The translations under genes were made by a program, and so were the position numbers. 64,000 bases of DNA from positions 484-64,483 of the forward strand of contig JADJBM010000017.1 in the NCBI GenBank assembly GCA_016703785.1, in the 5' to 3' direction. Below the pieces are notes generated by a model. The model worked only from the letters and a program-made list of their open reading frames with translations. It did no database searches and had not been told where the DNA came from. Numbering within the stretch: position 1 is the first letter of the stretch; each line of letters begins with the position of its first letter. Of this stretch, positions 21,451 to 44,771 are shown piece after piece. This DNA comes from Betaproteobacteria bacterium. GTDB taxonomy: Bacteria > Pseudomonadota > Gammaproteobacteria > Burkholderiales > Rhodocyclaceae.

Positions 21451-21468
21451 ATTATTGCCACAGTTACA

Positions 21469-21733: not shown

Positions 21734-22732
21734 CTATTGGATCAATCCTTCTTTCGCATGGCATGCCCATGGCTGCCGTAGTAGCTCGCGGTCACCTGCA
21801 CGCCCGTGGCCCAGGTCGCGCGACACTTCGATGCCGGCTTCGCGGTGCTTCACCAGATCAACCTGCTTGGGATCGGCGCCGGCAATTGGCGACGGCAGTC
21901 CAGCCATGTCCTGATACTTCTCTTGGGCGTACTCATGCCGCAGCCCATGGCTGGTCACCCCGAGGTCGTTGAGATTGACCCCGAGTTTCTCCGCCAGCAG
22001 GTAGTAGTAGCGGCGCTTGGCTTGGGCCCAAGTGCGACCCGGCCAACGGATACGCCTCGTCTTTCCGGTCTCCGCCACACGCAGCGCCCACTCGAACACC
22101 TCGCGCTTGTAGTCGGTGTCGATCGGAATGCGGCGCCAGCGCCCGCCCTTCGTGCCTTCATGGATGTCCAGCGCGGTTCCGCTCTCGGCGCGGCACCAGG
22201 CCGGGTGCATCTCAATGGCTTCCTTCATGCGCAGGCCGAAGGCGTCCTCGAGAGCCAACATCACCGCAAGACGCTCGTCGATCTCGCGCGCTCGGGCGAT
22301 CACCACCGCAGCCTCAACACCGTTGGGCAGCCAGGCGCGGTTTCGCTTAGCGACCGTGCGGCGCCGCACGTCCTTGTTGGGCAGATAGTCATGCACGTCC
22401 TGGACCATGCCGGGCTTGTTGATCCAGCCGCAGAAGGTGCGGAGGAAGGACACCCTGGTATGCAGGGTGATGATGGCGATGCCTTCCTGATCCCAGCGCT
22501 GGAGCAGAACCTCGATGTGGCGGCTGCCCAAGTTGCGCGGCGAGGCCAGGCGGTAGCCCATCTCAAATAGCTGCGCGAAGGCCAGCCGGTAGAAGCTGGC
22601 ACGCTCGAGCCGGGTCTTGGCGGAGGCCTTGCCCTGCTTGCGTGTGGTGCGAAAGCCGTTGTGACCGTTGAGGATCCTGTCCAGCTCGTTCAGAAACTTG
22701 GCCGGCAGGTACTTGTCTGCGAGGGACTTCAT
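21734..22732 (-). mobile_element. Tyrosine recombinase / island integrase (Integrase_1-like), 3' end probably frameshifted
   Basis: 332 aa ORF with AFGLRMKEAIEM (Arg I region) and TSHGLRHEYAQEKY (H-x-x-R box). After LGHGRAG the alternative frame reads VTASYYGSHGHAMRKKD*, which restores a Y-containing catalytic tail. In the printed frame that Tyr is lost. Confidence 0.75.
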
Positions 22733-23966
22733 GGTGGTTTCCTTTCTCTTGAATGATTCGCATAGGTTCTCCTCATCCCAGTCCGGGACGATGAGGTTGA
22801 TTTCTTCGATATCGCGCTCGACAACCAGCAGTCAGCGGCCGGCGGCGGTCTCGCCGGCGACAGGCAAAAGGTCTTCCCCCGCGCGAGAGCCGTCGCACGG
22901 TGCAATTCAATTACGGGTTGGTGGGGTAAAGCAGGGCGGTTAGAAAGGTCAAACGATTGGCGCACGTCTTCCACATTTCTGCGGAGAGAACGGCAGCAGC
23001 TACCTCGCTCAAAACGAAGCGCTACCCAGATCGGCCGTCCAGACGCTCATAGCGCTGAAGCGGGGTCACCATCACATGGCGAGGAGCACCCTCAAAGAAG
23101 GTACCCCGGGGTATATTTCAGCCCCCCGATCCGTCCGTCCACGGCCATCCATCACATGGCGCCGCGGGTCAGCTGTTTCCGGAATCGCATCCCGTGCGGA
23201 CATCAAATCTCAAGTGTCGATGTCCCAGCCGCTGTTCGTAGATCCACCCCTGCCCACCTGGGTTCAGCTCCTGCCAACGGAGCTACCGGGTGCTCTTCAA
23301 CGGAGACGATGGCCCATTGCCACCACCTTGCCGGTTGGCATCCAAGACGGACATCGAGCGTGTGAATCATGTTGTTTGGTCTGCCAGGGAGGAAGTCGCA
23401 CGTTCCGAACCGCCGGCCCGCACAGAAATCAACCATGACTAGAGAGAATCCCTGCGGTACCAGCTGCAGGGGTGACGAGCGCAAGGCTCATCGGTAATAG
23501 AGCGACCATTCAGGTCGGTGATTCGCGCCGTTGTTGCTCGGCGGATGTCCGGGCGGCTCGCCCGAAAGGGTTTCGAGAGCTTTATCCCCATCCTGCAGGG
23601 ACTGACGCGGTTCCTCTCGCGCTTCCACGTTCGCCAGCACGGCGAAAAAACTTTTAATCGGTCATGCGGGACAAGCTACATCACGCGACGCAATTATCCT
23701 CACAGAAAATAATTCCTGTCAACTGTCGAGCGAACGAACTACATGGGTTGGTGAATTTTTGGTTCCGAAATCGGCTTGAAAACTAATAAAGACGCCACTC
23801 TTGAAATATGTCTGGTTCCACCTGCTTTCCGTTGGTGGTTCGCTCGACTGCAAGCCGCGTGCCACAAAGCACTCGATGCATCGCGCGATTTCAAAGCTGG
23901 ATCACATCATTCTTTCCGCGCTCAAGCAGTTCTCACCGATCAACAGCAAAAGCATACTCAAATCAC

Positions 23967-25143: not shown

Positions 25144-27081
25144 ATGATTTTCCATATCCCGCTGCGCGACCTCAAGCTGTTCTCGGCCGGCGGCCTCGAA
25201 GGCCTGACCGAGGCCGAGCTGGTGGCGCGCCTGCGCGCCGAGCACCCCCGCCTGCTCGCCGATGCGCAGATCGAGATCGCCGGCGGCATGGTCACCATCC
25301 GCTTCCCCGAGCCGCCCGCGCAGGGCAAGGCGGAGGCCGCGCGCCTGCTGGAGAAGGGCATCCAGCGCTGCCGGCAGGGCGAGTACCGCAAGGCCGCCGG
25401 CATCCTGGAGCGCGTGCTCGAGCTGGACCCGTCGAGCACGCCGGCCTACCGCAACCTCGGCATGGCGCTGATGGAGCTGGGCGAGACGGAGCAGGCGCGC
25501 CAGCACCTGGTGGAGGCCGCGCTGCTCGACCCGAAGGACGCCTGGCCCTACGTCGTGCTGGGCAACGCCCTGGTGCGCGAGCCGGGCAAGCTCGACGCCG
25601 CCGAGGGCCTGCTCGCCAAGGCGCACGAGCTCGACCCGAAGGATCCCTGGGCGATGAACTCGCTGGGCGGCATCGCCATGGAGCGCGGCGACCTCGCCGC
25701 GGCGGTGGCCTGGTTCAGCAAGGCGCTGGCGGCCAAGCCCGACTTCGCCAACGCCCACTACGGCTGGGCCCTGGCGCTCTCCACCCAGGGCCGCGACGAG
25801 GCGGCGCTGGAGCGCCTCGGCCTCCTCTTCGCCAAGGCGGAAGTGCAGGACGCGCGCTCCCGCCCCGTCTTCGCCAACGCCCGCAGCCTCTGGCGCGAGA
25901 TCACGGCGCGGCGGGCCACCGCCCATGCGACGGAAAGCATCGCCGCCGTGCGCGCTTACCTCGACGGCATCGCGGAGCGTTCGGGCTTCCCCGTGCGCGA
26001 GGAATGGGCGGACTTCCCGGAGAACTACGCCGCGCAGACGCAGATGGCCTGGAAGAAGGGGCGCGACCACCACCTGGTGCGCCTGCGCCGCGGCTACCCC
26101 GAGCCGGCCTGGCACCACATCCTCGCCCACGAGGCCACCCATATTTCCATGGAGGCGGAGGCGCGCGCGCTCGGCCGCAACCGCTGGTTCACCCTCACCG
26201 ACGAGACGCGCCGCAAGGCGCTCCGGCAGATGGAGCCGGAGATCCGCCGCATCGCCCGCCAGGGGCATTCCGCCGAGCGCCTCGCCGCGCTGGTTTCGAA
26301 ACTGCTGGAGGGCGCCGCCGGCCTGCTCTTCAACACCCCCATCGACATGGCGATCGAGTCGCGCCTGGCGCGCGAGCTGCCGGTGCTGCGCGAGGCGCAG
26401 CTGCTGTCGCTCGACACCCTGGCGCGCGAGGCGGCGGCCCTGAGCACCCACCGCGAGATCCGCCAGATCACGCCGGAGCGCATCCTCGCCGTCAATGACA
26501 CTCTGAACGCCGCCGCCGCGCTGTTCCTGCGCGACCTCTCGGGCGGCGCCCTCGACTACATTGAGGCCTATCGCCCGTTCAACTGCCTGGCCAGGGCGGA
26601 GCGTTTATACGCCGCCTACCGCGACGCCGAGGCGGAGGGCATCGCGCCCGGACAGGAATACGATCTCGTCGACGAATTCGCCTCGCAGCTCGGCGTGCGC
26701 GCCTGGTACGTTTGGCAGGCCGACAGCGGGCCGGGCGGGGCGGCGGCAAGCGAGCCGCCGGCGCAGTCCCGCAAGATCGAGTCGCCGGCCGCGCTGATGT
26801 GCCTCGTGGCGGCGCTGGAGCGCCTTGACGGGCGCGGCGATCAGGACGTCGCGCAGATCGCCGCCGAGGCGGCGCTGAAGGGCACCACCGGCCTCGACCT
26901 GGATTCGCCGGAGAAGCTCCACAGCCTCTCCGCCTTCGGCAACGAGCGCTTCAGCGGGCTGGAGCTGCTCTGCCTGATGCACGCCGCGATGCAGCGCGTC
27001 AGCCCGGGCACTGACGTGGGGGCAGATTTCTCGGGGGTGTGGACGGCGGCGCAGATGATTTACGCGACGCGGAAGAAGTAG
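25144..27081 (+). CDS. TPR-repeat protein with central HEXXH metalloprotease-like motif
   Basis: Intact 645 aa ORF in very GC-rich DNA. TPR units run from QGEYRKAAGILERVLELDPSSTPAYRNLG to DFANAHYGWALAL. HEATH is at 26128-26142 (WHHILAHEATHISME). Confidence 0.7.
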   Translation: MIFHIPLRDLKLFSAGGLEGLTEAELVARLRAEHPRLLADAQIEIAGGMVTIRFPEPPAQGKAEAARLLEKGIQRCRQGEYRKAAGILERVLELDPSSTPAYRNLGMALMELGETEQARQHLVEAALLDPKDAWPYVVLGNALVREPGKLDAAEGLLAKAHELDPKDPWAMNSLGGIAMERGDLAAAVAWFSKALAAKPDFANAHYGWALALSTQGRDEAALERLGLLFAKAEVQDARSRPVFANARSLWREITARRATAHATESIAAVRAYLDGIAERSGFPVREEWADFPENYAAQTQMAWKKGRDHHLVRLRRGYPEPAWHHILAHEATHISMEAEARALGRNRWFTLTDETRRKALRQMEPEIRRIARQGHSAERLAALVSKLLEGAAGLLFNTPIDMAIESRLARELPVLREAQLLSLDTLAREAAALSTHREIRQITPERILAVNDTLNAAAALFLRDLSGGALDYIEAYRPFNCLARAERLYAAYRDAEAEGIAPGQEYDLVDEFASQLGVRAWYVWQADSGPGGAAASEPPAQSRKIESPAALMCLVAALERLDGRGDQDVAQIAAEAALKGTTGLDLDSPEKLHSLSAFGNERFSGLELLCLMHAAMQRVSPGTDVGADFSGVWTAAQMIYATRKK

Positions 27082-27544
27082 GGCGGTCGAGAGGCGGTAG
27101 GGTATTCAGGGATGGGCAGGCCTGGGGGAGGGCGGAATCCACTTATCGTTTCGCTTGGCTATGACGCTATGTCGCGGAACGACCGGTTTGCGATTGCCAA
27201 TACCTGTCGGTGGCGATTGTTCTCTCCATAGCTGACGTTGAGCAGGAACGTGTTCTCATAGGTTGTCCCTGGTTGCTCCGCCGCAGTTCATGGAAGACGA
27301 TTCGCACAAGCGACTGATCGTCGTTACGTCAGAGAACACATGATTGGCATCTGAAGCACCCAAGCCAGAAGTCGCGAACAGCGCAAAGCCCATAGAGTCT
27401 TGTTATTCCATTTGATTCACGGCAGGATACCAGGCTAAAAAGAGCTATCCTGCATCCTCGGGCGGCAACGGCAACCGCGTTTTCTGATCTCAGCCTTCTT
27501 CATAGAGCGGGGATGTTAGAAACACCAGTCGGATATCACCTGAA

Positions 27545-30500
27545 ATGAACGTCTTTCAAACCCATGCTGACATCGTTTCGGACTACGCGACCTACATCCG
27601 AAGCTTCCTGAAGATCGACGATCCCGCGATTCGACTTACCGTCGAGGAAGCGCTCAATCAGGGGAAGCTCTGGCCGGAGCCGCTGCTCCAGTTCAATCCA
27701 TCATTCGAGATGTACGGCAGTCTGGAGAAGCTGGCGCAGGCCGGAGACATTCACTCCGATATTCGTGACATCTTCAAAGGTTACTCACTCTACAAGCATC
27801 AGGTCGAGGCCATCAGGCTCGGCACGTCCGGCAAGGACTTCATCGTTACTTCCGGAACGGGCTCCGGGAAGTCATTGACCTACATTGGATCGATCTTTCA
27901 TTACCTGCTGTCCAACCCGCATGCCAAGGGTGTCACTGCGATCGTCGTCTATCCGATGAACGCTCTGATCAACTCGCAGTTCGAGGAATTTACCCGCTAC
28001 AAGGACAACTACGAAGAGACTACGGGGAAGACTTTCCCGATCAGTTTCGGCCAATACACAGGGCAAGAGAAGGAAGACAAGCGCGCCGAGATGCGCGAGA
28101 ACCCGCCGCAGATACTGCTCACCAACTACATGATGCTGGAGTTGTTGCTGACGCGCCTTCGCGAGCGATCGATCCGCGACGGGATCTACGAGAACCTGAG
28201 TTTTCTGGTCTTCGACGAACTGCATACCTATCGCGGCCGACAGGGCGCTGATGTCGCCATGCTGATCCGGCGCATCCGGGCCCGCAGCATCAAGCCGGTA
28301 GTCTGCATTGGCACATCGGCGACCATGGTTTCGGTGGGTTCGCTTGCGGAGCAAAGCGCCGAGGTCGCCAAAGTCGCGACCAAGCTATTTGGCAAGCCCT
28401 TCTCGCCTGAACAAGTCATCAACGAGACACTCGCCCGCTCGCTCGACTACAAGGGATTATTGCCATCGTCAGATGCATTGGCCCAGGCGATTGATGCGGG
28501 CGTAAATCAGAACGCCGATGCCGACAGTCTGAAATTGCATCCAGTTGCGGTATGGCTTTGAAAACGCCGTAGCACTCGAAGAGCGAGAAGGGCGACTGGT
28601 GCGGGGAAAGCCACAGCGCCTGTCTGCGATTGTTGAATCACTTGCCCTCGCCTCCGGGAAAACGGCCGACGTTTGCCTGGCATTTCTGCAGCATCTATTG
28701 CAGTGGATCAGTGCCGTCAATCAACGAATACAGGAGGCAGGGCAACGCTATACGCAATTGCCATTCAAGCTTCATCAATTCATCTCGCAAACCGGGTCTG
28801 TCTATACAACACTCGATCAGGATGAAAAGCGTTTCATCACGCTTGAGCCTGGTATTTTCAAAGCCGACGAGGCAGACAAGAAGCCGATCTTTCCGAATGT
28901 GTTCAGTCGGGCCAGTGGCCACGCGTTCATTTCTGTTTCCAGGATAGAGAATCGCCTTGAGCCCCGTGAATTCAGGGAAAGCTCGGATGAGGATTCACAG
29001 GCGACGGATGGCTATCTGATCGTCGGGGAAGATATCTGGGATCCGCTGGAAGACAGCGAACTGCTACCGGAGGCATGGCTGCGCCAGACCAAAACCGGTC
29101 CCGTGCCCGACTCGAAGAAAAAGGCATCCTTTCCGATCAAGTTGTACTTCAACGAATTGGGTGAGTGCTCGGAATCAAAGCCGCTGAAATGGTGGGGTTG
29201 GTTCATGAAAGCCCCGCTGCTGTTCGATCCAACGGCCGGCATTTTTTACGACACCAAGACCAATGAGGGAACCAAGCTGACCAAGCTGGGCAGCGAAGGC
29301 CGCAGTACATCCACCACCATCACTGCCTTCTCCATGCTTAATCGGCTCAACGATGCCGGCTACCGGCAGGAGGACCAGAAGCTCCTCAGCTTCACCGACA
29401 ACCGGCAGGATGCCGCTTTGCAAGCCGGGCACTTCAATGACTTTGTCCAGGTGGTTCGCCTGCGCGCCGGCATCCGCAAGGCGCTCGAACTGGCGCCTAA
29501 CCAGACCTTGACCTATGCCACGCTCGGCGAAGCTATTTTCAAGGCGCTTGCCGTGCCATTCACGGAATTCGGCAACCGTAACGAAGAGCCCCAGTTCGCA
29601 TCGGTCCGTGATGACTACGAACGCTGCTTTCAGGACTACCTGCTGTACCGAGCTATCGCTGACCTGCGCAGGAGTTGGCGGATTGTTCTGCCCAATCTTG
29701 AGCAGTGCGGTCTGCTCACAGTCACTTATGCCGACCTTGACCGCCGTGCGGCAGATGCCGCCTGGAACAGCTTTCCTCTGATCGGCGACCTGAAGCTCGA
29801 TGAACGCAAGGAGTTCATCAGCACCATCCTCGATTTCTTCCGCCTCGAATATGCCATTCACAGCGAAAACTACCTGACGCTGTCCAAGATCAAGGAATAC
29901 GAAAAGCACTTCCGTGAACTGCTGCGGGCGCCCTGGACGCTGGACCGCAACGAAGAGCTTCGTGAGCCGTTTTTCATCCGTTACGATCCGCTCCACAAGT
30001 CGGCACGGTTTTCCTCCAAGAGCATGGGGCCGGCCAGCGCCCTGGGCAAATTCATCAAGCTCTATGTCCGCCAGAACGACATCGACATTGACCTCAAGGG
30101 GCCGAACTACCGCGTCTTCATCGAGCGGTTGATGACCATGCTGGAACAGGCCGACTTTCTCAAGTCGCAGATCGCCCGTAACGCAAAAAATGAAGAGGTG
30201 CCTGTCTATCGCCTGCGTCTGGAAAAGATAGTCTGGAAAGTCGGCGATGGCGAGACGGTGAAAGCGGACGTCATCAAGCAGCGGTCCTACAAGAATCAAG
30301 CGCCTCGGCCGAATCTTTTCTTCCGCAGCCTTTATTCCCGCGACTTTTCCAAGGTGAAGCGATTGCGTGGCGACGACCACACCGGGCAATTGAGTACGGA
30401 CGTCCGCATCGAACGGGAAGATCAGTTCCGCGAAGGGAAAATCAGCGCCTTGTTCTGCTCGCCGACGATGGAACTGGGTATCGACATTCGCAACCTGAGT

Positions 30501-32672
30501 GTCGTCCACATGCGCAATGCGCCGCCCAACCCGTCCAACTATGCGCAGCGCTCTGGGCGCGCTGGCCGCAGCGGCCAGGCGGCACTGGTATTCACCTATT
30601 GTTCGACGTATTCGCCTCACGATCGGCACTACTTCAAGGAGCAGGCGGCCCTGGTGGCGGGGGCGGTCATGGCGCCACGTCTTGACCTGTGTAACCGCGA
30701 GCTTCTCGCCTCGCACTTGAACGCGCTTGTGGCATCGCAAATCGGCATGCCGGGGCTCGACGACATGGGAGCGGGCAAGCCGTCCATCATGAGGCTGGTG
30801 ATCGACGATAACGACAAGATGCCCTTGTCCAAGGAAGTTCGTTCCGGTCTCGACATGTCGCCGGCGACGTTCGGCGACATCAAGGCGACCTTCAAGCGCG
30901 CCATACGAGACTTCGAGGGAGAGCTGGAAGCCAATGGGGCAACGTGGTATTCGGATCAGTGGATCGACCAGAATCTGTCGAAAGTCGCCGACAATCTTGA
31001 TCGCTCGCTGGATCGTTGGAGAAGGCTATACCGCTCGGCCCGAACCATACTCAGTCGTGCGACGCAGAAGATCGAAAGCGGAACGCTCAGTCTGGGCAGC
31101 GATGAATATCGTAAGCACAAGCGCAATCAGGATCAGGCGACACGCCAGCTCGATCTGCTGCGTAACGACCTGGCCGGCCGATTCAGCGAATTGTCCGAGT
31201 TTTATCCCTATCGCTATCTGGCCTCCGAAGGATTTCTCCCCGGATACAACTTCACCCGGCTCCCACTCCGGGTCTTCCTACCCACTGGGGACTCTTCCGG
31301 GGAGTTCGTCTCGCGACCGCGCTCGATTGCACTGCGGGAGTTCGGGCCGCTGAACATCATCTATCACAACGGCCGCAAATACCGCGTATGCCAGCTTGTG
31401 ATCCAGGATGCGGAATCGGCATTGACGGAAGCCAAGATCAGCAGCAAGACGGGCTACTTCATGGCAGGCGACGCTGCCAAGGACAGTACCTGTCCGTTCT
31501 CCGGCATCGATCTTTCCGACAACGCCTTCAAGGAACACCTCCATGACCTGATGGAGATGGCCGAATCCCGTGCCGAAGAGATTGATCGCATTTCCTGTGA
31601 GGAAGAGGAGCGCGTCTCGCGCGGCTACGAAATTCGCACCTATTTCTCCGTCGACGGCGGGCAGGTCGATCGCGTCCGCAAGGCCGTCGCCACGTCGACC
31701 GAAAACGCCCTGTTGAATCTGCGTTATGTTCCAGCGGCGCGTCTGATTCACGTCAATACCCAATGGCGTTCGCAGAAAACCGAAGGCTTCCCCATTGGCC
31801 TGATTTCCGGTGACTGGCGTGGCTCCATGCCGGATACCAGCGCCGAAGCCAATGCCAATCTCAAGGAAGAATTCCGCCTGGTCAAACTCTGGACTTCCAA
31901 TCTTGCGGACGCCCTGTATATCGAGCCGATCCAGCCGCTCGGCTTGAAACCCGACGGTGTCATCACCTTGCAGCATGCGCTCAAGCGCGCCATCGAACGT
32001 GTCTTCCAGGTCGAGCCAAACGAAATCGGCGTGGTCGCCATCGGCGATCCGGAGGCGCCCAACATCCTGCTGTATGAAGCCGCCGAAGGCAGCCTCGGCA
32101 TCCTGTCGCAATTCGTCGAAGACGTGAATGTCTTCCACAACGTCATCAATCAGGCCATCGCCCTGTGTCGCTTCGACGACGCCGATTACAAGGGCCCGGC
32201 GAGTTACGACGATCTGCTCAGCTACTACAACCAGCGCGACCACCGGATCATCGACCGCCATCTGATCAAGGATGCGCTGGAGAAGTTGCGCATCTGTTCC
32301 ATCGAGATTCAAACCAACACCGGTTTCGGCAGCTACGAAGAGCAATACCAGGCGCTGCTGCGCAATCTCGACCCCAATTCATCGACCGAACGCAAGTTCA
32401 TCAATCATCTCTACGAGAACGGATTGAGGCTCCCCGACGCCGCACAGAAGCGGGTCGATGGTCTCTATGTCCAGCCGGACTTCTACTACGAACCCCGCAT
32501 CTGGGTCTTCTGCGACGGTACTCCGCATGACGAACCGGCGATGAAGGAAAGCGATCACGCCAAGCGGCAAGCCATCATGGCGCGCGGTGACGAGGTCTGG
32601 GTTTATTACTACCAGGATGACCTCGCCGCTATCGTTGCGGCCCGGCCCGATATCTTCAGGAAGGTGCGATGA
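27545..32672 (+). CDS. Giant DEAD/DEAH-box helicase fused to a DUF1998-like domain and a C-terminal DUF559/Vsr-like endonuclease domain (DrmA+DrmB-like), ~1709 aa
   Basis: ORFs 27545..28561 and 28545..32672 join if one T of the T3 run 28557-28559 is dropped (VAVWLENAVALEE). Helicase motifs: TSGTGSGKSL (I), VFDELHTYRG (II), GTSATM (III), SPTMELGIDI (V), YAQRSGRAGR (VI). The DUF1998-like part reads YRYLASEGFLPGYNFTRLP...ISCEEEERVSRGYEIRTYF. The C-terminus LYVQPDFYYEPRIWVFCDGTPHDEPAMKESDHAKRQAIMARGDEVWVY fits the DUF559 PD-(D/E)XK pattern. Confidence 0.8.
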
Positions 32673-35572
32673 CCGCCTTTTCACAATCGTCCTTGCAGCC
32701 CGGCAAGCTCGTCAGCCTGCGTGGGCGCGACTGGATCGTGCTGCCCTCGGAAGATCGCGACCTCCTGGTCGTCAAGCCGCTCGGCGGATCGGACGATGAG
32801 ATTGCCGGCATCTATCTGCCACTCGCCATTGCGAGCGATCGGCCCGCCGATGCCCGGTTTGAAGCACCCGCTGCCGCCGACCTCGGCGATATCAGCTCCG
32901 CCCGCCTGCTTTACGATTCGGCCCGACTGGCTTTTCGCAATGGCGCGGGTCCATTCCGAGCCCTGGCCAAGCTTTCCTTCCGGCCGCGTTCCTACCAGAT
33001 GGTGCCGCTCATCATGGCCCTGCGTCAGGAGTCGGTGCGACTGTTGATCGCCGATGACGTGGGTGTCGGCAAGACGGTCGAAGCACTGCTGATCGTCAAG
33101 GAATTGCTGGAGCGGCGCAAGATCAAGCGCTTTGCCGTCGTCTGCCTGCCCCACCTCTGCGAGCAATGGCAGGCCGAGATTCGCGCCAAACTGGACATGG
33201 AAGCCGTCATCATCCGCTCCAACACCCAGGCGCGACTGGATCGCCAGATCCAGGGCGACACCAGCGTCTACGACTACTACCCATATCAGGTCATCAGCAT
33301 CGACTTCATCAAGTCCGATACCCGGCGCGACGTATTCGTCGAGCAATGTCCGGAACTGGTGATCGTCGATGAAACCCATACCTGTGCGCGTCCAACCGGT
33401 GCCTCCAACAGTCAGCAACAGCGCTATCACCTGATCAGCCGCATCGCCGTCAAGCCGGGCCAGCAGCTCATCATGCTCACGGCGACACCGCACAGCGGCA
33501 AACCGGAAGAATTTCAGTCCCTGCTGGGGTTGCTTCGCCCCGATTTCGAGTTTATCGACCTGCCCAATTCCAGTCAGGCCCAGCGCCGCGAATTGGCGCG
33601 CTACTTCATCCAGCGCAAGCGCGGCGATGTCGAAAAATGGTTGGGCGAAGACACGCCATTTCCCGAACGCGATGCCTTCGAGTGGCCCTACGAGCTTTCG
33701 CCGGCCTACTTGCAATTTTTCGAAGAGATCATCGACTTCGCCCGCCGCCTGATTGCGACGGATTCCGCGCAGGAACGGCGTCAGCGGGTCCAATACTGGA
33801 CGGCTCTCGCATTGTTGCGTGGTGTCATGTCCAGCCCGTCAGCCGGCGTAGAGATGCTCAATACCCGGCTAACGAACCTGGCAGCCGCTGTGGGTGATGA
33901 TGCAGAGGTTTCGGCCGCTGCCGACGTTGCTCAACTGGAGCTTGGCGACAACCCCGTTCGCGATACCGAATCCGGGTGCCGAGAGCGACAACACGCCCAC
34001 CCAGATCGTCGAACGCAACGGCTGGACCCAGCGCCAGCGCCAGGAACTGCGCGAGTTTGCCCGGCAGCTCGAACAGCTTGGCAACATCAAGCAAGACCTT
34101 AAGCTGGCTTCGGCCGAACTGATCATCGACGACTGGCTGACAAGCGGCTTCAACCCCGTTGTCTTCTGCCGCTACATCGCCACCGCCAAATACATCGGCG
34201 AGCAGCTCGCGCCGATACTCAAGAAGAAATTTCCCAAGCTCGATCTGGCCGTCATCACCAGTGAGTTGCCCGACGAATTGCGCAAGCAGCGCATCGAAGA
34301 AATGGGCAAGTCGCCGCTGCGAGTGCTGATCGCCACCGACTGCCTCTCCGAGGGTATCAACCTGCAAGAGCACTTCACCGGCGTCCTGCACTACGACCTG
34401 CCGTGGAATCCGAACCGGCTGGAGCAGCGAGAAGGCCGGGTCGACCGCTTCGGCCAGATGGCGCCCACCGTCAAAGCCTGCCTGCTGTACGGTGCCGACA
34501 ATCCCATCGATGGCGTCGTGCTCGATGTGCTCCTGCGCAAGGTGCGCGAGATCAAGCGCGCCACCGGCATCAACGTCCCGTTTCCCGAAGATTCGCAAAG
34601 CATCATCGACACCATCACGCAGGCACTGCTCCTCAACCCCAATCGTCACATCGAGAAGAAGCGCGTCAGCAAGAACCAGATCGAATTCGACTTCGGCCAG
34701 TTCGACGAAGCGGCCGCTGCCCGCGCCAACGTCACCCGCAAGATCGATGAAGCCGCCGAACGCGAAAAAGCCTCGCGCGGCATCTTTGCCCAGAATGCCA
34801 TCAAGGCGCAGGAAATCGAGGCCGATCTGCGCGAGATGGATGAAGCCATCGGCGATCCACTCGTTGTCGAAAACTTCGTTACTTCAGCGCTGAACAACCT
34901 GCTTGGTGTGCAGGTCGACAAGCATGCCAAGGGCTACCGCATCGTCCTCGGCAACCTGCCGCCGCAACTGCGTGAGCTGTTGCCAGACCTTGGCCATAGC
35001 CCCCAGGCGACGCAATCAAGGTCAGCTTTCATTCCCCGACGCCCGAGGGTTATCACTACCTGGGGCGCAATCATCGCTTCGTCGAACAGTTGTGTCAGCT
35101 TGTCATGGCCAATACGCTGTCTCGGGTGGACAAGCGCGCCGCCCGTGCCGCGGTCGTTCGCTCCCGGCAAGTCAGCATCAAGACCACGTTGCTGCTCTTC
35201 CGCTGCCGCAACGTCATCGAGCAGGCCAAGCTCAATCACCAGATCGTCGCCGAGGAAATGTTGCTCTGGGGCTGGCGCGGCACGCCGCAACAGAAGGAGT
35301 TTCTCGACCACGCCGAAGCCAAGGCGCTACTGACCGAGGCGCGTGCCTCCTCGGACATCTCGCCGCAGGCTCGCGCCAGCTTCCTGGAGAACGAACACAA
35401 GCTTCTCGACAATCTCGATGATGATTTCCGCGTGATCGCCGAACAGCAGTCGAAGCGCCTGGTCGAGGCCCACGAGCGCTTCAGCGCCCTCATGGACAAA
35501 CAGCGATTCCAGGTTGTCTATCCCGTGTTGCCGATGGATCTGCTCGGCATCTACATCCTGCTCCCCGAATAA
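32669..35572 (+). CDS. drmD: SNF2-family helicase (DrmD-like), two or more frameshifts
   Basis: ORFs 32669..34102, 33894..35333 and 35090..35572 join into one protein. Its ATG overlaps the upstream stop (ATGA). Motifs: [15 protein letters not shown] (I), LVIVDETH (II), MLTATPHSG (III), [15 protein letters not shown] (V), [20 protein letters not shown] (VI). The symbol is tentative and based on context. Confidence 0.75.
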
Positions 35573-35575
35573 GCC

Positions 35576-37142
35576 ATGTCACTGCCCATCAACATCAACG
35601 ACCTTCTGCACGGCAAGTCCGTCGAGTGGGAGCGCCTCGAATTCAAGGCAGGTTGGAATCCGCTCGATGTACTGCATTCGATTTGCGCCTTCGCCAATGA
35701 CATTTCCACAACCTTGGCGGCGGCTACATCCTGTCGGTGTCGCGGAGAAAGAGGGCCAGCCCGAGCTGCCGCCCGTCGGCCTCGATCCCGCCAGATTCGA
35801 TGCCATCCAGAAGGAAATCCTCAACCTTGGCTACAGCGGCATCCAGCCTGCCTACCACCCCATCGTCGCGCCCTGTGATCATGAGGGCGCGTCGATTCTG
35901 GTCATCTGGGTCCCGGGCGGGCCGACCCGGCCCTACAAGGCCAAGCTCAGGCTGGGCAAGGATTGCAAGGACTACGGCTACTTCATTCGCAAGCAGTCCA
36001 GCACCGTGCGCGCCAAGGGTGCCGAAGAGCTTGAGCTGCTCTCATTGGCGGCCACAGTCCCGTTCGATGATCGCGTCAATCAATCGGCCCATGTCGAAGA
36101 CCTGTCGCGCGAACTGATGCAGGACTATCTGCACAGGTGGGCAGCGATCTGGCCGGGCAGCCGACCAAACTCTTCCATTGCTAGAACTTGGCCGCCAGAT
36201 GGGCGTCATCGGCGGCCCGAAGGAAGCGCCTTTCCCGCTCAATGTCGGCCTGCTGATGTTCAAACAGGATCCTGCGCTTCTTCCCCGCCACGCAGATCGA
36301 CGTCGTCTGGTTTCCCGAAGGAAGGCGGCGGGCGGCATACAGTTCTTCGAAAAGATCTTTCAAAGGCCCGATTCCATCGCATGATCCGCGATGCGCTGGA
36401 TTACATCAAGCGCAACTACATCACCGAGATCGTCATCAAGCACTCCGGCAAGGCCGAAGCCACCCGGGTCAAGAACTTCCCCTTTGATGCGATTGAAGAA
36501 GCACTGGTTAATGCGGTCTATCACCGCAGCTACGAGGTGCGCGAACCAGTCGAGGTACGCGTTTATACCAATGAACTGGTGGTGCTCAGTTATCCCGGCC
36601 CGGATCGTTCAGTGCAACTTGATCAATTGCGGCGGGGGCGCGCCATGGCCCGGCGCTACCGCAACCGCCGCATCGGTGAGTTCCTGAAGGAACTGGAATT
36701 CACCGAAGGCCGCTCCACCGGCATTCCGAAGATTCTGCGTGCGATGGCCGCGAATGGTTCACCGCCGCCCCGACTTCGAGACCGACGAAGACCACAGCTA
36801 TTTCCAGGTACGCCTGCCGGCGCACCCTATGGCGCAAACAGCCATCGCAAAAGTCAGCGCTGGCGAGACGGCGGCAGGGCCAGGCCGGGACCAAGTCGGG
36901 ACCTAAGTCGGGACCAGGTCATGAACTGCGTAAGTGCCTGGACCGAAAGCCCGATTCAGGACCTCATGGCAGTCGCGCGAACCAACCGAACCAAGTTCCG
37001 GGACCAGGTACTCAAGCCGCTGCTGGCTGACGGCCTGCTTGCCATGACCATCCCGGACAAGCCCACCAGCCGTAACCAGCGCTACATCATCACTGACCAA
37101 GGCCGTGCCCTGCTGACCACACTGCCGGAAGACCAGCCGTGA
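35576..37142 (+). CDS. AlbA_2/Schlafen-type DNA-binding domain plus HATPase_c_4-like ATP-binding regulator (4 or more frameshifts)
   Basis: N-terminus [37 protein letters not shown]. The middle region in other frames reads [66 protein letters not shown] and [16 protein letters not shown]. The C-terminus reads [44 protein letters not shown]. Confidence 0.65.
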
Positions 37143-40100
37143 TTTACCCCAGCATCCGCATCGAAGGCGCCATCCTGTCGCCCGACATCCTCGACCACCT
37201 CGACGATGCCGCCGGCCAGCGCCCCGCCGATTTCAGCCTCGATACCGGCACCAAGGTAAAGGACGAAATCGCCCGCGCCTGGGCCGACGCGCAAGACTAC
37301 TGGCGCATCTTCCAGCGCAAGCTGGAAAGCCTGAAGCCCGATTCCCCGGCCACCACCGAAGCCCGCCAGCAATGGGTCACGCCGCTGCTGGGCCTGCTCG
37401 GCTACCAGCTCGACTACCAGGCCAAGGGGGTCGAACTCAATGGCAAGACCTACGCCATTTCCCACCGTCTCGCGCATCGCGGCAACACCCCCATCCACAT
37501 CATCGGCGCCCGCGAAGCCGCCGGGCTGGACCGTAAACCGGAGCGCACCCACATCGGCGCGCCGCGCATGTCCGCCCACGCCCTGGTGCAGGAATACCTC
37601 AATCTGCACGACGAACTCTATGGCATCGTCACCAACGGCCGCATCCTGCGCCTGCTGCGCGACAGCTCCCGCCTGATCAAGCTCAGCTACCTCGAATTCG
37701 ACCTCGACCGCATCTTCGGCGATGGCCTGTTTGCCGACTTCGCCATCCTCTATCGCCTGCTGCACGTCTCGCGTCTGCCGGCCAGTAGTGAAGCCGCAGC
37801 GGAAAGCCTGATCGAGCGCTACCACCAGGATTCGCTGGATTCCGGCGCTCGTATTCGCGATGGCCTGTCCAAGGCCGTCGAGCAAGCCATCCGCGATTTC
37901 GCCAACGGGTTTCTTACCCATCGCGACAACGATGCGCTGCGCCAGTCCATCCGCGAAGGCAATTTGTCACCGGAAAGCTACTACCAGCACCTGCTGCGCC
38001 TGATCTACCGGCTGCTCTTCCTGCTCGTCATCGAAGAACGCGATCTGGTTTTCCCTCCCTCGGCCAGCAACCCGCAGCGCGATATCTACCGGCGCTATTA
38101 CAGCCTGGAACGCCTGCGCCTGCTGTCCGAAAAACGCCACCTCGCCGACAAACGTCATCACGATCTCTGGCTGGCGATGCTCGCCACCTTTCGCCTGTTC
38201 GAAGCCCACGGCCCCGGCCACAAGCTCGGCTTGGCCCCGCTGGCCGGCGACCTGTTCAGTCCGGCAGCCATCGGCCCGCTGGCCGGCGCCATGCTGGGCA
38301 ACGACGTTCTGCTCGGTTGCCTGCGCGCCCTCGGTCTCTACCAACACCCCGAAAATGGCCAGACCATCCGCGTCAACTACGCCGCCCTCAACGTCGAGGA
38401 ATTCGGCTCGGTCTATGAAGGCTTGCTCGAATACAAGGGTTCGTTTGAGCTCATCCCCGTCCTTCAACACGGCCGGGGGACGATGACTTCGCCCAAGGCG
38501 ACCAGGGCCGCCACCGGCTCGCACACCGATCGTCCAGCCGCTCATCAAGCACTCGCTCGACTACCTGATCGCCGACGCACTCAAGAAACCCGACCCAGAA
38601 AGGCCCTGCTCGAACTGCGCGTCGCCGACATCGCCTGCGGTTCCGGCCACATCCTGCTGGCCGCCGCCCGCCGCATCGCCACCGAACTCGCCATCGTCCG
38701 CACCGGCGAGGAACAGCCCTCACCATCGGCCTTCCGCAGCGCCATCCGCGACGTGATCCGCAACTGCATCTACGGCGTGGACCTGAATCCGCTCGCCGTG
38801 GAGCTCTGCAAGGTCGCCCTCTGGCTGGAAGCCCACACCCCCGGCGAGCCGCTCAACTTCCTCGACCACCACATCAAGTGCGGCAACGCCATCGTCGGTT
38901 TCGCCCGGCGCGAGGAAGCCGAGCGCGGCGTGCCCGATGAAGCCTTCAAGACGCTGCCGGATGATGACAAGGAAACCGCAGCTCTCCTGCGCAAGCGCAA
39001 CAAACAGGAGCGCAAGGACCACGAAACCGGCCAGTTGCCCTCTTGCCCCTGCCTTGCAGAAGCAACTCGATGACATCTTGCGCGGCTGGCACGAACTGGC
39101 TACCTTGCCGGAGCGCACCCCCGACCAGATCGACGCCAAGAAGGCCCGCTACATCGCTTTCAGCCAGAGCGCCGATGCCTGGCTGCTGGGCCAGATTGCT
39201 GGGATTCCCATCGCCCAGTTCTACCTGCCCAAGACAGCGGACAACCTGCATAAGTTTGTCACCGACGCCGCCTTCCGGCGCTACTGGAAGGGAGAGATCA
39301 GCCCGCAAGGGCAGGCCACCGCGGAAGCCTGGGCACTGGCCGAGCGCAAGCATTTCTTCCACTGGTTTCTGGAGTTCCCCGAGATTATCGAGCGCGGCGG
39401 GTTTGATTGCATTCTTGGCAATCCGCCCTACCTCGGCGGGCAGGGGCTGAGCGGAACCTACGGCTCAGCCTTCTGCGAATATGTAAAGTGGGAATACGCG
39501 CCAACAGGACTAAGCGAACTGGTCGTCTATTTCGTCCGCCGCATCTTTACCTTGCTGCGCCCCGGCGGCTTCACCGCCTTCATTACGACCAATTCCATCA
39601 AGGATGGCGACATCCGCAAGGACGGGCTGGAACAGGTGCTGGCGCAGGGTGGCGCGATCAACATGGCCGTGCGCGGCATCAAGTGGCCAGGACGGGCCAA
39701 TCTTGTTGTTTCGCTGGTGGCACTACACCGTGGCGAATGGCACGGCACGAGGCTGCTTGACGGCAAGAAGGTGCCGGTCATCAGCGCCTACTTTGAGGAC
39801 GGCGAGGATGCGGGGGAACCGAAGGTGCTACCAGATAATGCCGATAGCGTTTTCCAGGGCTGCATTTTTCTCGGCGACGGTTTTTTGCTGTCGCATGACG
39901 AGGCCGAAGGGATGAGACTGCGCGACCCCCGCGTTTCCGAAGTCATCTTTCCTGTTACCAACGGTCAGGAGATCAATAACTCGCCCGACCAGTATCCCGG
40001 ACGGCAGATCATCAATTTCCTGGACTGGCCAAGATGAGGCAGCTGGTTACGGTGAGGCGTTTGAGCGCATTGACCGTCTTGTGCGTCCTCAGCGTGCTAC

Positions 40101-40951
40101 GGACAACCGGGCGCTTTACCGAGATCGTTGGTGGCAGTACGCGGAGCCAAGAAGGAAGCTGACAGCTAATCTCTCGCTGACTCCCCGCTGCTTCATCGCT
40201 GCAGCCACAACCAAATACCTCAACTTCTCTGCCGTGCCGACCAACTACGTTTTCTGCACACGCTCTACGTCTTCACCACCGACCGCTGGGACCTCTACGC
40301 CGTCGTCCAATCCACCCTGCACGAAGTCTGGGCGCGCAAATACAGCGGCGCGCTGAAACACGATTGCGCTACTCACCATCGGATTGCTTCGAGACCTTCC
40401 CCTTCCCGCAAGGTCTCTGGCAAACCGCAAATCCAACTCTTGCAACCCTCGGCGAGCGCTACCACGAACACCGCCGCGCCCTGATGCGCCAGCTCTGGCT
40501 CGGCCTCACCGACATCTACAACCTGTTCCATTCCCGCGACCTCACACCCGCCCAGGTCGCCAAGGTCAGCAAGAAATCCGCCGAAGAAGCCGAAGCCGGC
40601 TACCAGGGCATCCTCGAACTGCGCCGCCTCCACCGCGAACTCGACCTTGCCATCCGAGACGCCTACGGCTGGACCGATCTCGACCTCGGCCACGATTTCA
40701 TTGAAGTCGAAACCCTCCCCGAAAACGACCGCGTCCGCTACACCCTCAGCCCCGCCGCCCGCAAGGAAGTCCTCAAACGCCTTCTGGATATCAACCATCA
40801 GCGCGCCACCGCTGAATCGTTAGCAATGGATGCCATAGCGCCCGCAAAAAAGAAGCACAAAAAAGCGGCAAGTGATGATACTCATCCGGATATGTTCAGC
40901 GATAGCAGATATTCCCCTGGGTCGGGCGCGAGGCTTTCGTCTATGCATTGA
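37139..40951 (+). CDS. drmMI: Large N6-adenine DNA methyltransferase (DrmMI-like, type IIG-like architecture), 6 or more frameshifts
   Basis: Fragments 37139..39073, 38937..40037, 40081..40356 and 40364..40951 join. The GTG start overlaps the upstream stop (GTGA). The AdoMet motif is VADIACGSGHILLAAA. Catalytic NPPY is at 39420-39431 (DCILGNPPYLGGQG). Compensating shifts near 38520 and 38605 restore YTPIVQPLIKHSLDYLIADALKKPDPE. The gene may continue to 41342. Confidence 0.75.
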
Positions 40952-41352
40952 TTCCGCCCTGGGTGCAAGAGAGGCCGGGCAAGCAGTTCGAGTTCTATCG
41001 CGACGCGGCGCTGGCGGCGCTGCAGCGTTGTGCACGTTGGCGGGATGCGCAGGCGCGCGGGCCTCGATTGGCCGTTCCGGATGACCAACCATCCAGCGCG
41101 GCACCGCACCGCGCAAGCAGATCATTAGAACCGATGCGAAGACGGGGGCAACAGCAGTGCAAAGCGTGGCGAGTCTGCCTCCATTACCCAAGGGTCTTGA
41201 ACCCACAATGCCGCTGATCCTGAAGGCGGCGGATAACTTGGACAAGATGCAGCGAGGCGCACTCGAACGTGCCGAAGCAGAAAAACTTGCGTTGACGAAG
41301 GAGGATTTAGCCGCAGAATTCGAGAGGCTAATGGTCGCGTAGGATATATGAC

Positions 41353-43207
41353 TTGATCACAGTAGCCAAAATCAAGGATGCAGATTCACCGCGACTGTGG
41401 CTAAAGCGCATGGTTCTCTTTGCGTCACCAGAAAAGCGAGATGCACCCATCCGCGATATTCCTTTGCACCGTGGGTTGAATATCATCTGGGGCGTCGAAT
41501 TGCCGGATGACGCCGGGATAGATGCGGCTCACCCTGTGACTCTATCCGGACACTCGGTCGGCAAGACAACATGTTGCCGTTTGATACGCTATTGCCTAGG
41601 CGAAACGACATTTGGTAATCCAGCGGCAATGAGTCGCATCAGGAACACATTTCCGGAGTCGTGGGTTGGCATGGAGCTGACCGTAGGCGGTCAGGAGTGG
41701 TTGGTACTCAAACCCATCGGTCGTTCCGGTAACCCCAAAGCAGCACAGGGGATTGCTATCGAGCATCTTTTTGACCTTGATCGCAAACAGAATAATTTCA
41801 GCGTTTTCACGGAACATCTGCATAGCACCATGATGAGCGGGCTTCGAGACAAGCGCCCCTCCCAATTCCGCGAAGTCCTACGAGTGGAAACATCTGCTTG
41901 CATGGCTAACCCCGCGATCAGGAGGCGCGCTTTCAAAGCTTGTATGACTGGCGTTCGCCTCGTAGCGGAGCGGATACGCCAAGATTCGAGAAACCGAAGG
42001 AATATGCTTTGTATCTGATTCGCCTGGTCTTGGACATTGTTCAGGATGAGGAACTGCGTGTTGCCCAGTTGCTTGGCGAAGCTGAGCGCAGGTTAACGCA
42101 ATCTGAATCGCGCATAGCGGAATTACGACAGGAACCGGAGTACGGGCGGACTGAGCAGGAGCGGGCCTTGAAGCAGTTGCTTGGTCTATCGTCTGCGGAT
42201 GCGCTGAATGTTGACGAGCTTGATTTAATGTCCCCCATAGTCATCCGTCGCTCGGTGCTGACAGGCACCATCTCCGCTATTCAGAACGAGATTGACGCAA
42301 TCGATGGACGTATTGCCCTGGAGCGCGTTTGGCTGGCTTCATACGACGAGCAACGTCGTCTTTTTCATGATGTGATGGAAACGACGGATGGGGCAACTGA
42401 GCAGGGGAATCACGAAGAACCGGAAGACGACACGATTCAAAAACTCCGGGCGATAAGAGGGAAAGATTGCACTTACGGCAACATCCCTTTCGGTGAATGT
42501 TCGTATGTACTTGAGCGTTTGGAGAAAACCGACAAGCTAATCAACCTTCCACAAATACGGGAGGATCGGCGCGTAGCTTCGAGACAGAGCGCCGCTTGAG
42601 TATCTTGGATCAGCAGCGCAAGGACCATGACGAGATAGTTGCTCTGCTGGAAGAATTGCGGAAGAAGCTGGAAGGGAACGTTGCTGACAAGCGCACCAAA
42701 GAAGTACGTCTGGCGGAGCAGCGAAATCAACTTCAGCTTCTCGACTACCACCTCGTGCAGTTGCGATCGGCACGGGACTTGATAGCGGGGCGGTCACCCA
42801 ACACGGAACTGGAGAAGGGAAAGCGGCCAGTGCCGCCGAACAACAGGAGGTTATCGAGCTTCAAAAGCAGGAATTACAGCGCTTGCAGGCATCCTATGGA
42901 CAACGCTTGCAGGCAATCGGGAACATATACGATGGCCTGATAAAAAGCGCCTTGTCCGATACCTATTCCGGCGCGCTACAAATGCCGAAGGGCGAATTGC
43001 AGTTCCAGATTGAGGAAGCCACCGGCCTCTCTGGCGAGGCGGTTGAGACCTTGGCCCTCGTGTTAGCCGTATTACTACGACGAGTCGTCCTCCGGAGAAG
43101 CTGCGGCAAGCGATTTGCCTCCAGCTCGAAGCTCATCCACAGACCAACATGCTGTTCGGCTGCGCACTAAGGAATCCGGAATTGCCAGCTACGGGAGATC
43201 TTTTCTG
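41353..43207 (+). CDS. P-loop ABC/SMC-like ATPase with long coiled-coil (DUF2326 / ABC-three-component-like), 4 or more frameshifts
   Basis: Fragments 41353..42018, 41940..42599, 42596..42940 and 42883..43170. N-terminus IPLHRGLNIIWGVELPDDAG...LSGHSVGKTTCCRLIRYCLGETTFG. Long heptad-rich middle region. The likely tail is ...TNMLFG... with TGA 43206-43208 overlapping the next ATG. Confidence 0.55.
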
Positions 43208-43450
43208 ATGACCGCGCCACTGAATCGGGACATCAATTCGCGCTTCGAAGACTGGCTCATCAGTCCAACCGAGACCCTCGACTTCGAGGTCAAGGGCTGG
43301 CTCGATCTGAGTGATGCCGAGGCGCGTGGCGCGGTGGCGAAAGCACTTATCGCACCGGAAAACCACGGCGGCGGATTCCTGCTGATTGGGTTTGCCGAAG
43401 ACCAGGAACGACTGATCCAGGATCCGCAACGCCCTGCAAGTCTCGCTTAG
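43208..43450 (+). pseudogene. AlbA_2-like domain fragment (ends at TAG; the frame stays open beyond it)
   Basis: MTAPLNRDINSRFEDWLISPTETLDFEVKGWLDLSDAEARGAVAKALIAPENHGGGFLLIGFAED. After TAG 43448-43450 the same frame reads YRTDEINAIIKKCADWQNPEQRQFNG before stopping. Confidence 0.4.
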
Positions 43451-43643
43451 TACAGGACGGATGAGATCAATGCGATTATCAAGAAGTGCGCTGACTGGCA
43501 GAATCCTGAGCAACGCCAGTTCAATGGGTAGCCAGACAGGTAGCCAGGAGGAAACATGAAGACGAAACACCGCGCCAGTACTGGCATTCCGCCATTCTTC
43601 AACCTTACCTTCTGCAACCTGTAGGTTTTGTTTCGACGGACTC

Positions 43644-43829
43644 GTGACGAAGACACCTGCTCCGCGCATTGTCATCTGTCTGCTGCGGCAAGCCGGTGCC
43701 GTGGATTCCGGCCGCGCCTTCCGCCCCTTCTGTTCCGAGCGCTGCCGCAACGTCGACCTGGGCGCCTGGGCGGCGGAGGGTATCGCGTGCCCGAAGCAGA
43801 GCAAGCCGCTCCCGGACGAGCAACAGTAA
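43644..43829 (+). CDS. yacG: DNA gyrase inhibitor YacG (zinc finger), with compensating indels in the first Cys pair
   Basis: FRPFCSERCRNVDLGAWAAEGIA is the YacG signature. The upstream CxxC is recoverable only in a neighbouring frame, as CCGKPVPW. Confidence 0.7.
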   Translation: MTKTPAPRIVICLLRQAGAVDSGRAFRPFCSERCRNVDLGAWAAEGIACPKQSKPLPDEQQ

Positions 43830-43830
43830 C

Positions 43831-44771
43831 TCAATCCCACGCCGCGCGGACGGCCGATCGCGCGATACCGTGCGTGCGCCGGCCTGCTGCGCGGTGTCCA
43901 GATCCTCCGCCGCATGCCGCCGAGCGCGAATACCGGCAAGGGCATGTTTTCCAGCAGTTGCGCGAAGCGTTTCCAGCCGAGGCCGCCGATGCCGGGATGG
44001 CTCAACGTATCGCGCACCGTTCCCAGCACCGCGAAATCCAGTTCCAGCGCAGCGGCGCGTGCCAGTTCCGCAGCGTGATGACAGGACGCCGCCACCAGCG
44101 GCAATTCAGGCCACACCTCCATTTTGCATCAGTTGTGCGCTGGGCGGTTGCACACCGTCGCGCCGACATGCAGCGCCAGCGCGGCATCGCCGTTGATCAG
44201 CACGCGTGCGCCATGGGCGTGCGCCAGCCGATGTCGCCTCGCGCGCAGGCCTCCCGCCGCTCGACCTTTAACAGCGGCTCGCGGATCTGCACAAGTCGCA
44301 AGCCAGCGGCCGGTGCCCGCCGCAGCTTTCCATCTGCGCCGCAACGCCGGTCTCGCCGGCATGGGTGATGGCGTAGAAATCCGGCAAAGTCAGCCCCCGC
44401 AGCACGGCGAGGTTGGCCGGCAGCAGCGGCGCCACATCGACGTTGTCGGCGCGCCGCCACGCCAACGCCGAATGATGGATGTCGCGGATCTCGCCGTGCC
44501 AGCCGGAGACGCGGAAGAAATGCAGCCGCACGTGGGCGTGCGGATAAACGAACTCGCGGGTGATCCACGGCGTATAGCGATCCGCCTCGATGCCGAGCTC
44601 TTCGTGCAGCTCGCGCACGAGCGCCTGCGCCGCGGTCTCGCCCGGCTCGATCTTGCCGCCGGGGAATTCCCAGTAGCCGGCGTAGGGCTTGCCCTCGGGC
44701 CGCTGGCCCAGCAGGAAGCTGCCGTCGGGCTGCAGGATGACGGCAGCGGCGGCTTCGACAATGCGCGTCAT
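43831..44771 (-). CDS. mutT: Nudix hydrolase (MutT-like) fused to a ThiE-like domain (3 or more frameshifts)
   Basis: MTRIVEAAAAVILQPDGSFLLGQRPEGKPYAGYWEFPGGKIEPGETAAQALVRELHEELGI carries the Nudix box. Downstream fragments read LRLVQIREP, ARVLINGDAALALHVGA, VAASCHHAAELARAAALELDFAVLGTV and PVFALGGM. Confidence 0.75.

Follow-up and report, generated by a model that had tools for sequence, protein, structure and literature searches.

What kind of defence system is encoded by a row of two helicase genes and a large adenine methyltransferase gene that resembles DISARM and has no PLD nuclease gene? Such a locus lies at 27545-43205 on the + strand of the window, by which we mean the whole stretch of 64,000 nt analysed here (positions 484 to 64,483 of contig JADJBM010000017.1, assembly GCA_016703785.1, Betaproteobacteria bacterium, family Rhodocyclaceae). 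An earlier interpretation made without database searches (the sequence-only reading) had described 27545-40951 as a class 1 DISARM-like locus lacking the PLD gene drmC. We consider it highly probable that the locus encodes an anti-phage system of ARMADA Type I accompanied by two accessory genes, and it is better classified under this label than as DISARM class 1. The type of locus is already known from the literature: the "DISARM without PLD" pattern is the published ARMADA Type I, and it thereby gains both a name and an explanation, namely that the nuclease is fused to the helicase.

Assignment of the locus to ARMADA Type I

ARMADA, short for 'disARM-related Antiviral Defense Array', is a DISARM-related anti-phage system that was described in 2025 (Bell et al. 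2025, bioRxiv 10.1101/2025.09.15.676423). It is defined by a clade of YprA-family helicases that is sister to Druantia, and both ARMADA and class 1 DISARM have a BrxHII/RapA-like helicase and a PglX-like methyltransferase. The published order of Type I genes is the YprA-like helicase first, then the BrxHII/RapA-like SNF2 helicase and the PglX-like methyltransferase. The nuclease in ARMADA is a Vsr-type domain on the C-terminus of the helicase, whereas in DISARM it is encoded by a separate PLD gene; it is in the DISARM branch that the helicase and DUF1998 consistently come from two genes, with the PLD gene downstream (bioRxiv 10.1101/2025.09.15.676423).

The gene order in the window matched that published for Type I, with the helicase gene starting at 27545, the SNF2 gene at 32669, and the methyltransferase gene at 37139, all on the + strand. 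Domain scans bore out the gene products listed by the sequence-only reading, that is, co-directional + strand genes from 27545 for a DExH helicase with DUF1998/MZB, an SNF2 helicase, an AlbA_2-type protein, and a large N6-adenine methyltransferase. Its end point of 40951 was wrong, both for the methyltransferase, whose real stop is the TAG at 41340-41342, and for the locus, since a fifth gene at 41353-43205 had been missed.

Four proteins (MBI3915848.1, MBE0613778.1, MBX3650389.1, and MBI2506241.1) were 76% identical to the 1375-amino acid (aa) helicase open reading frame (ORF) of the window over 100% of its length, and the same four accessions carry the label 'ARMADA Type I helicase' in Table S1 of bioRxiv 10.1101/2025.09.15.676423. 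This is direct evidence of membership in ARMADA Type I. A scan of one genome per species yielded 61 related loci from many phyla, with helicase identities of 63-99%. Cultured carriers among them include Acidithiobacillus ferriphilus DSM 100412 (L002) and Dechloromonas sp. Dech2017 (L013). At least five of the contigs carrying these loci occur in Table S1 as carriers of an 'ARMADA Type I helicase', four of them by exact protein accession. The order helicase, SNF2 helicase, methyltransferase was kept in about 35 of the 61 loci, these being long enough to show all three genes. The closest full-length relative, a locus in a Sulfuritalea metagenome-assembled genome (MAG) with 91% nucleotide identity (L031), has four intact genes, encoding a helicase of 1708 aa, an SNF2 protein of 967 aa, an AlbA_2/HATPase_c_4 protein of 532 aa, and a methyltransferase of 1452 aa.

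Hidden Markov model scores were taken from intact orthologues with the PADLOC, NCBIfam, and Pfam models. The helicase scored 267 bits with PADLOC DruE3 and at most 36 bits with DrmA, the latter over the Helicase_C motifs only; it matched no DrmB model and reached the cut-off of no NCBIfam model. The match to DruE rather than DrmA/DrmB agrees with the published placement of ARMADA beside Druantia. The sequence-only reading had named the PADLOC models as its check and, beforehand, an assignment to DruE as the result that would speak against it; with the scores above, strict membership in DISARM fails. The drmA/drmB gene content that it proposed also did not hold, as the helicase and DUF1998 form one fused polypeptide (1708 aa where the orthologues are intact). 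The alternative is a genuine class 1 DISARM in which drmC was lost and drmA and drmB were fused. In favour of such a system, the methyltransferase reached 700 bits with PADLOC DrmMI, and DrmD, in a nearly full-length alignment, was the best NCBIfam match of the SNF2 protein; this likeness of two components is the part of the DISARM proposal that stood. The DrmD score was 305 bits against a cut-off of 610, however, the orthologues are listed in Table S1 as ARMADA Type I, and the DISARM branch consistently has the helicase and DUF1998 separate plus a downstream PLD gene. We regard this alternative as very improbable. The sequence-only reading was right that a PLD (DrmC) gene is missing: none was found in 27545-43495, where the coding space is fully accounted for by five genes and one gene remnant. 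Under the ARMADA Type I assignment this gene is missing because the nuclease is fused to the helicase.

The helicase score of 267 bits could also suggest a variant of Druantia, and the SNF2 score a variant of Dpd, since PADLOC PDLC02853 ('DpdE') matched the SNF2 protein over its full length with 614 bits. Against this, neither DruA-D, DruH, or DruM/F/G nor DpdA/B/C was found in or beside the cassette (27545-43495 and the scanned flanking genes), the NCBIfam scores were 166 bits for DpdE against a cut-off of 500 and 72 for DpdJ against 800, and the conserved partner across the related loci was the methyltransferase. We give such a variant hardly any credence.

A helicase with a predicted C-terminal nuclease

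The armC-like gene (27545-32672, +) encodes a YprA-family DExH helicase-nuclease that is split into two ORFs in the window. Its product was 98% identical at the aa level to the intact 1708-aa orthologue of the Sulfuritalea MAG. The RecA1/DEAD domain lies at 27794-28330 (Pfam DEAD, 92 bits), with the Walker A motif GSGKS at 27860 and DELH at 28214. The Helicase_C motif region of RecA2 is at 30363-30575 (Pfam Helicase_C, 54 bits), about 680 aa beyond RecA1, so that a large insertion separates the two RecA lobes, and the DruE models aligned on either side of it. Inserts between RecA1 and RecA2 have been described in Type I helicases as BrxA-like, beta-barrel zinc-binding (CxxC), and MarR-like (bioRxiv 10.1101/2025.09.15.676423). 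The DUF1998/MZB (MrfA Zn-binding) domain follows in the same polypeptide at 31968-32162 (Pfam MZB, 29 bits; cut-off 24.2).

The last ~100 residues of the helicase were nearly invariant across phyla and carried the motif PDF...FCDGxPHD...D...RQ, including invariant D/H residues. A structure of 103 residues from this region was predicted by AlphaFold2 with 112 homologues (pLDDT 79.9, pTM 0.70) and had an alpha-beta-beta-beta-alpha-beta core. The top match in a Foldseek search of the PDB was 3r3p_B, the catalytic domain of the homing endonuclease I-Bth0305I (probability 0.97, TM 0.58/0.60, 94/98 columns), and the lower-ranked matches included DdmD, VRR_NUC, and TnsA, which are PD-(D/E)xK-type nucleases. 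The same structure, 3r3p, has also been reported for the Vsr domains of ARMADA II ArmC and DruE (bioRxiv 10.1101/2025.09.15.676423). It should be mentioned that an earlier model of 150 residues, built on an alignment of 30 sequences, was of low quality (pLDDT 60) and gave meaningless Foldseek matches; it was not used. A regular-expression search of the loci for stand-alone DUF559/Vsr proteins, meant for a profile-profile comparison, found none.

Several observations speak against an ARMADA Type I helicase-nuclease. The nuclease domain was detected neither by a Pfam scan of the helicase C-terminus with E-values up to 10 nor by a profile search of PDB sequences, and the Foldseek E-value for 3r3p_B was just 0.059. 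The four-cysteine cluster of DUF1998 was absent from this helicase subfamily (the Sulfuritalea locus, 8990-14116, and likewise the window, 27545-32672). A cysteine scan found no C-x2-4-C motif anywhere in the 1708-aa orthologue, which has only 15 cysteines; the general description of ARMADA helicases stresses many zinc-binding modules (bioRxiv 10.1101/2025.09.15.676423), and the subfamily found here differs in this respect. Finally, published experiments were found for ARMADA Type II only and none for Type I. On evidence that is moderate but consistent, we assign the C-terminus of the helicase (32361-32669, +), from the structure model and the invariant motif, as a Vsr-like nuclease domain of the PD-(D/E)xK superfamily.

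SNF2 helicase and methyltransferase

The armA-like gene (32669-35572, +) encodes an SNF2 helicase of the RapA/BrxHII/DrmD-like kind, 967 aa when intact, with the Pfam domains SNF2-rel_dom and Helicase_C. Besides the match to PDLC02853, its PADLOC scores were 285 bits for DrmD and 164 for BrxHII; the NCBIfam DrmD model that matched best was NF038317. The armB-like gene (37139-41342, +) encodes a PglX/DrmMI-like N6-adenine methyltransferase of a long form of ~1400 aa with the Pfam domains Eco57I, MmeI_Mtase, and MmeI_TRD. Motif I (DIACGSG) is at 38627-38647, and the NPPY motif was located at 39420-39431, as the sequence-only reading had it, in a different frame from motif I. The C-terminal extension of the protein runs on in other frames past 40951 to the TAG stop codon.

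The Eco57I and MmeI domains of this protein, together with its 397 bits on the PADLOC model REase_MTase_IIG, could be taken to mean a stand-alone type IIG restriction-modification enzyme to which the helicase genes are unrelated neighbours. We find this extremely improbable: the score with DrmMI (PDLC02643) was far above those of the type IIG models, and the three genes were linked, with overlapping stops and starts, in many phyla wherever the loci extended far enough. Within the window, the stop/start overlaps are ATGA at 32669-32672 and GTGA at 37139-37142. The claim of four stop-start overlapping genes was thus correct as to these overlaps; it did not hold in that none of the four is one intact ORF, as together they fall into eight pieces.

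The helicase and SNF2 proteins were 97-98% identical to those of the Sulfuritalea locus. The central recognition-domain region of the methyltransferase was only 57-68% identical, compared with 80-86% in its flanks. A recognition domain more divergent than its flanks, next to such conserved helicases, fits diversification of specificity.

Accessory genes and the 3' end of the cassette

Between the SNF2 and methyltransferase genes lies a gene (35576-37142, +) for a protein of ~520 aa with Schlafen/AlbA_2, HATPase_c_4, and C-terminal winged-helix domains, recognised by Pfam in the window ORF and in intact orthologues. The position it occupies is a variable slot: about 10 of the related loci have an AlbA_2 gene here, a few have other small genes, and most are empty. 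The AlbA_2 protein was just 50% identical to its counterpart in the Sulfuritalea locus, whereas the products of the flanking genes were 97-98% identical, which points to cassette exchange in the slot.

The fifth gene (41353-43205, +) encodes an LmuB-like SMC/ABC-type ATPase of ~680 aa with the P-loop GHSVGKTT. It was recovered by tblastn with the orthologue of one related locus (L005), in which the gene follows the methyltransferase gene at 21273-23318, and the identity was 63-74% across frames. The protein matched the PADLOC LmuB model with an E-value of 7e-17 over nearly the full model length and had no Pfam match. An LmuB-like gene was present 3' of the methyltransferase gene in 14 related loci as well as in the window, and the methyltransferase in these loci always had at least 1423 aa, whereas none of the 17 short-form methyltransferases (1246-1294 aa) had an LmuB-like gene downstream. 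The gap between the two genes was at most 13 nt, or the genes overlapped, and the pairing of long form and LmuB-like gene spanned Bacteroidota, Verrucomicrobiota, Nitrospirota, Desulfuromonadaceae, and Betaproteobacteria. Neither the AlbA_2/HATPase_c_4 protein nor the LmuB-like partner is mentioned in the main text of bioRxiv 10.1101/2025.09.15.676423. We tentatively suggest a subtype of ARMADA Type I with four or five genes, in which a methyltransferase of the long form, extended at its C-terminus by ~170 aa, may work with a tightly coupled LmuB-like ATPase, sometimes together with a swappable Schlafen/AlbA_2 ATPase cassette; as conjectures go, we would not back it at even odds. In such a subtype the LmuB-like ATPase would play a part like that of ArmD, the additional ATPase in Type II. 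This pairing is the sole possibly new point of the locus and, if real, would define the subtype.

The cargo 3' of the methyltransferase gene varied among the related loci. Other proteins encoded directly 3' of it were SIR2_2 proteins in three loci (L010, L013, and L018), a Fic protein in L023, a NERD protein and a UvrD-like helicase reminiscent of ArmD in L044, and a repeat-rich protein of 947 aa in L055. In the window, the LmuB-like gene is followed by a remnant at 43208-43495 (+) that corresponds to the initial 96 codons of a gene encoding 451 aa (82% identity by tblastn), the full form of which follows the methyltransferase gene in L054. The remnant speaks for an earlier cargo exchange or a truncation at the island's 3' end.

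Cause of the frame breaks

Compared with intact orthologues, all five genes were frame-broken, with ~19 indel-type switches in 15.7 kb, and no gene could be translated at full length as written. The eight ORF pieces of the first four genes gave, in Pfam, a DEAD/DEAH N-lobe, the 1375-aa piece with Helicase_C and DUF1998, two SNF2 pieces, one piece with HATPase_c_4 and a winged helix, and three pieces of the Eco57I/MmeI type. The helicase gene was broken by a +1 insertion at 28557, and the SNF2 gene by +1 at 33977 and -1 at 35007. The tblastn frames showed about five switches in the AlbA_2 gene, while the methyltransferase gene had six (frames 2>3>1>3>2>1>3) and the LmuB-like gene at least five (frames 1>2>3>2>1>3). 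Phase variation was rejected as the cause, as there were no simple-sequence tracts at the mapped indels.

These breaks may be real mutations, which would make the locus a truly decayed, non-functional relic of ARMADA Type I. Consistent with decay, the switches are numerous and concentrated in the 3' genes, a truncated gene remnant follows them at 43208-43495, the SNF2 segment between the two indels is less conserved (90.6% versus ~98%), and several long ORFs elsewhere in the window appear intact. On the other side, the helicase protein is 98% identical to its intact orthologue, and no clean nonsense substitutions were seen within the locus beside the indels. Genes outside the island were broken in the same way: an ammonium transporter gene (46954-48265, +) had two switches near 47790-47830, with Pfam model positions 2-227 and 253-395 matched in different frames, and in a sensor histidine kinase gene of the PAS/HAMP type (60012-61822, +) the HATPase_c domain was split by two switches near 61640-61680. 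The ThiE-like ORF at 43136-44122 (-) also looks truncated, matching Pfam TMP-TENI at positions 97-159 only. Similar shredding was seen in four related loci (L018, L052, L053, and L058), all of them from 'MFD' MAGs. On balance, we judge a decayed relic possible and rather doubtful.

The breaks outside the island suggest indel errors of assembly across the window. We rate assembly error no less likely than decay and favour it here because unrelated housekeeping genes are broken likewise. The uneven distribution of the breaks counts against it: the 5.1-kb helicase gene has one, whereas the AlbA_2 gene has about five in 1.6 kb and the LmuB-like gene five in 1.9 kb. A uniform error process does not predict such unevenness, and real decay keeps some probability. 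With housekeeping genes broken as well, caution is due before this copy is called functional or decayed. As a separate observation, a GC-phase track hinted at a frame switch at ~49900 inside a dienelactone hydrolase gene (49422-50738, +); the track was too noisy for a window-wide count of frameshifts and serves as a pointer only.

Upstream spacer and surroundings

The locus is preceded by a spacer at 27082-27544. The sequence-only reading had given this AT-richer spacer as ~460 bp, and it measured 463 bp with a GC content of 0.54 compared with 0.72 upstream. Homology to the related loci began only at 27522-27545, so that the spacer lies outside the conserved cassette. The inverted repeat that had been put forward as an operator, GCAGGATA-N16-TATCCTGC at 27422-27453, does exist and is present once. 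Its role as an operator found no support: a perfect 8-nt inverted repeat with a spacer of 3-25 nt arose in 12% of shuffles of the spacer sequence, and the repeat was absent upstream of all 61 related loci. A consensus scan of 27082-27544 found no sigma-70-like promoter or terminator. When insertion scars were looked for, no direct or inverted repeats of at least 11 nt were common to both ends of the cassette.

A second stretch of low GC content (0.47-0.56) lies further upstream at 15029-22732. Its genes encode a double-AAA ATPase (15029-17125), a DUF2779+WYL protein (17168-19675), and a tyrosine integrase (21737-22732, -). The stretch may be a further island, of the defence or the mobile kind, and between it and the ARMADA cassette lies a TPR gene of high GC content (25144-27081). 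Elsewhere in the window, a 723-aa ORF (54264-56432, -) combines urea transporter and Peptidase_M23 domains; either the fusion is an unusual one, or a frame error has joined two genes.

Proposed mechanism

In ARMADA Type II, all genes, the Walker motifs of the helicase, and the NPPW motif of the methyltransferase are required, defence is non-abortive, and the target appears to be unmodified phage DNA (ARMADA literature). The analysis shows the identity and order of the genes, the families to which they belong by sequence, the modelled fold of the nuclease domain, and the breaks in frame; every step of the mechanism that follows we infer from the homologous systems ARMADA Type II and class 1 DISARM. 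The ArmB-like N6-adenine methyltransferase, through its MmeI-type recognition domain, would mark a short asymmetric motif in host DNA. It probably takes part in recognition and is probably needed for the restriction step too, as in BREX and ARMADA II. The ArmC-like YprA helicase would load onto incoming unmodified DNA, translocate by means of its RecA lobes and an OB-CON-DUF1998 canopy, and cut with its own C-terminal Vsr-like nuclease. As ArmC would carry its own nuclease, no separate PLD (DrmC) gene would be needed. The ArmA-like SNF2 ATPase may link recognition with attack by translocating along DNA or remodelling it, and defence would be direct rather than abortive. The AlbA_2/HATPase_c_4/winged helix-turn-helix protein and the LmuB-like ATPase are presumably optional, the former possibly a regulator or sensor and the latter possibly a further ATPase that partners the long-form methyltransferase.

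Comparison with known systems

Among known systems, Lamassu bears on the fifth gene only. Its LmuB is likewise an SMC/ABC-type ATPase with a P-loop, but no LmuA effector or LmuC gene is present here, and the gene is tied to the long-form ARMADA methyltransferase. Druantia supplies, in DruE, the closest model match of the helicase, and in both proteins a large insertion separates the RecA lobes and DUF1998 is fused. The Druantia partner genes are absent here, however, DruE of Druantia III ends in PLD domains, and Druantia I and III are without SNF2 or adenine methyltransferase partners.

DISARM class 1 (DrmD, DrmMI, DrmA, DrmB, and DrmC) has in common with the locus an SNF2 helicase, a large N6-adenine methyltransferase, and a YprA-family helicase with a DUF1998 module. 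In DISARM, DrmB is separate from DrmA, whose N-terminus is EVE-like and which has a trigger loop, and the PLD nuclease is a separate protein, whereas here a Vsr-like nuclease is, on our assignment, fused to the helicase.

ARMADA Type II, experimentally validated as ArmABCD of E. coli, has homologous SNF2, methyltransferase, and YprA-helicase-Vsr components. Its fixed order armA-armB-armC-armD, its GajB-like UvrD helicase ArmD with a RelE-like domain, and the extra inactive EEP and Vsr domains of its ArmC were not seen here. From the published ARMADA Type I, the copy in the window differs in being frame-broken, in carrying an AlbA_2 gene in the slot and an LmuB-like gene after a long-form methyltransferase gene, and in having a helicase without CxxC. 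It agrees with Type I in the three core genes and their order, in a helicase with a fused DUF1998 and a putative C-terminal Vsr-type nuclease, and in the absence of a PLD gene.

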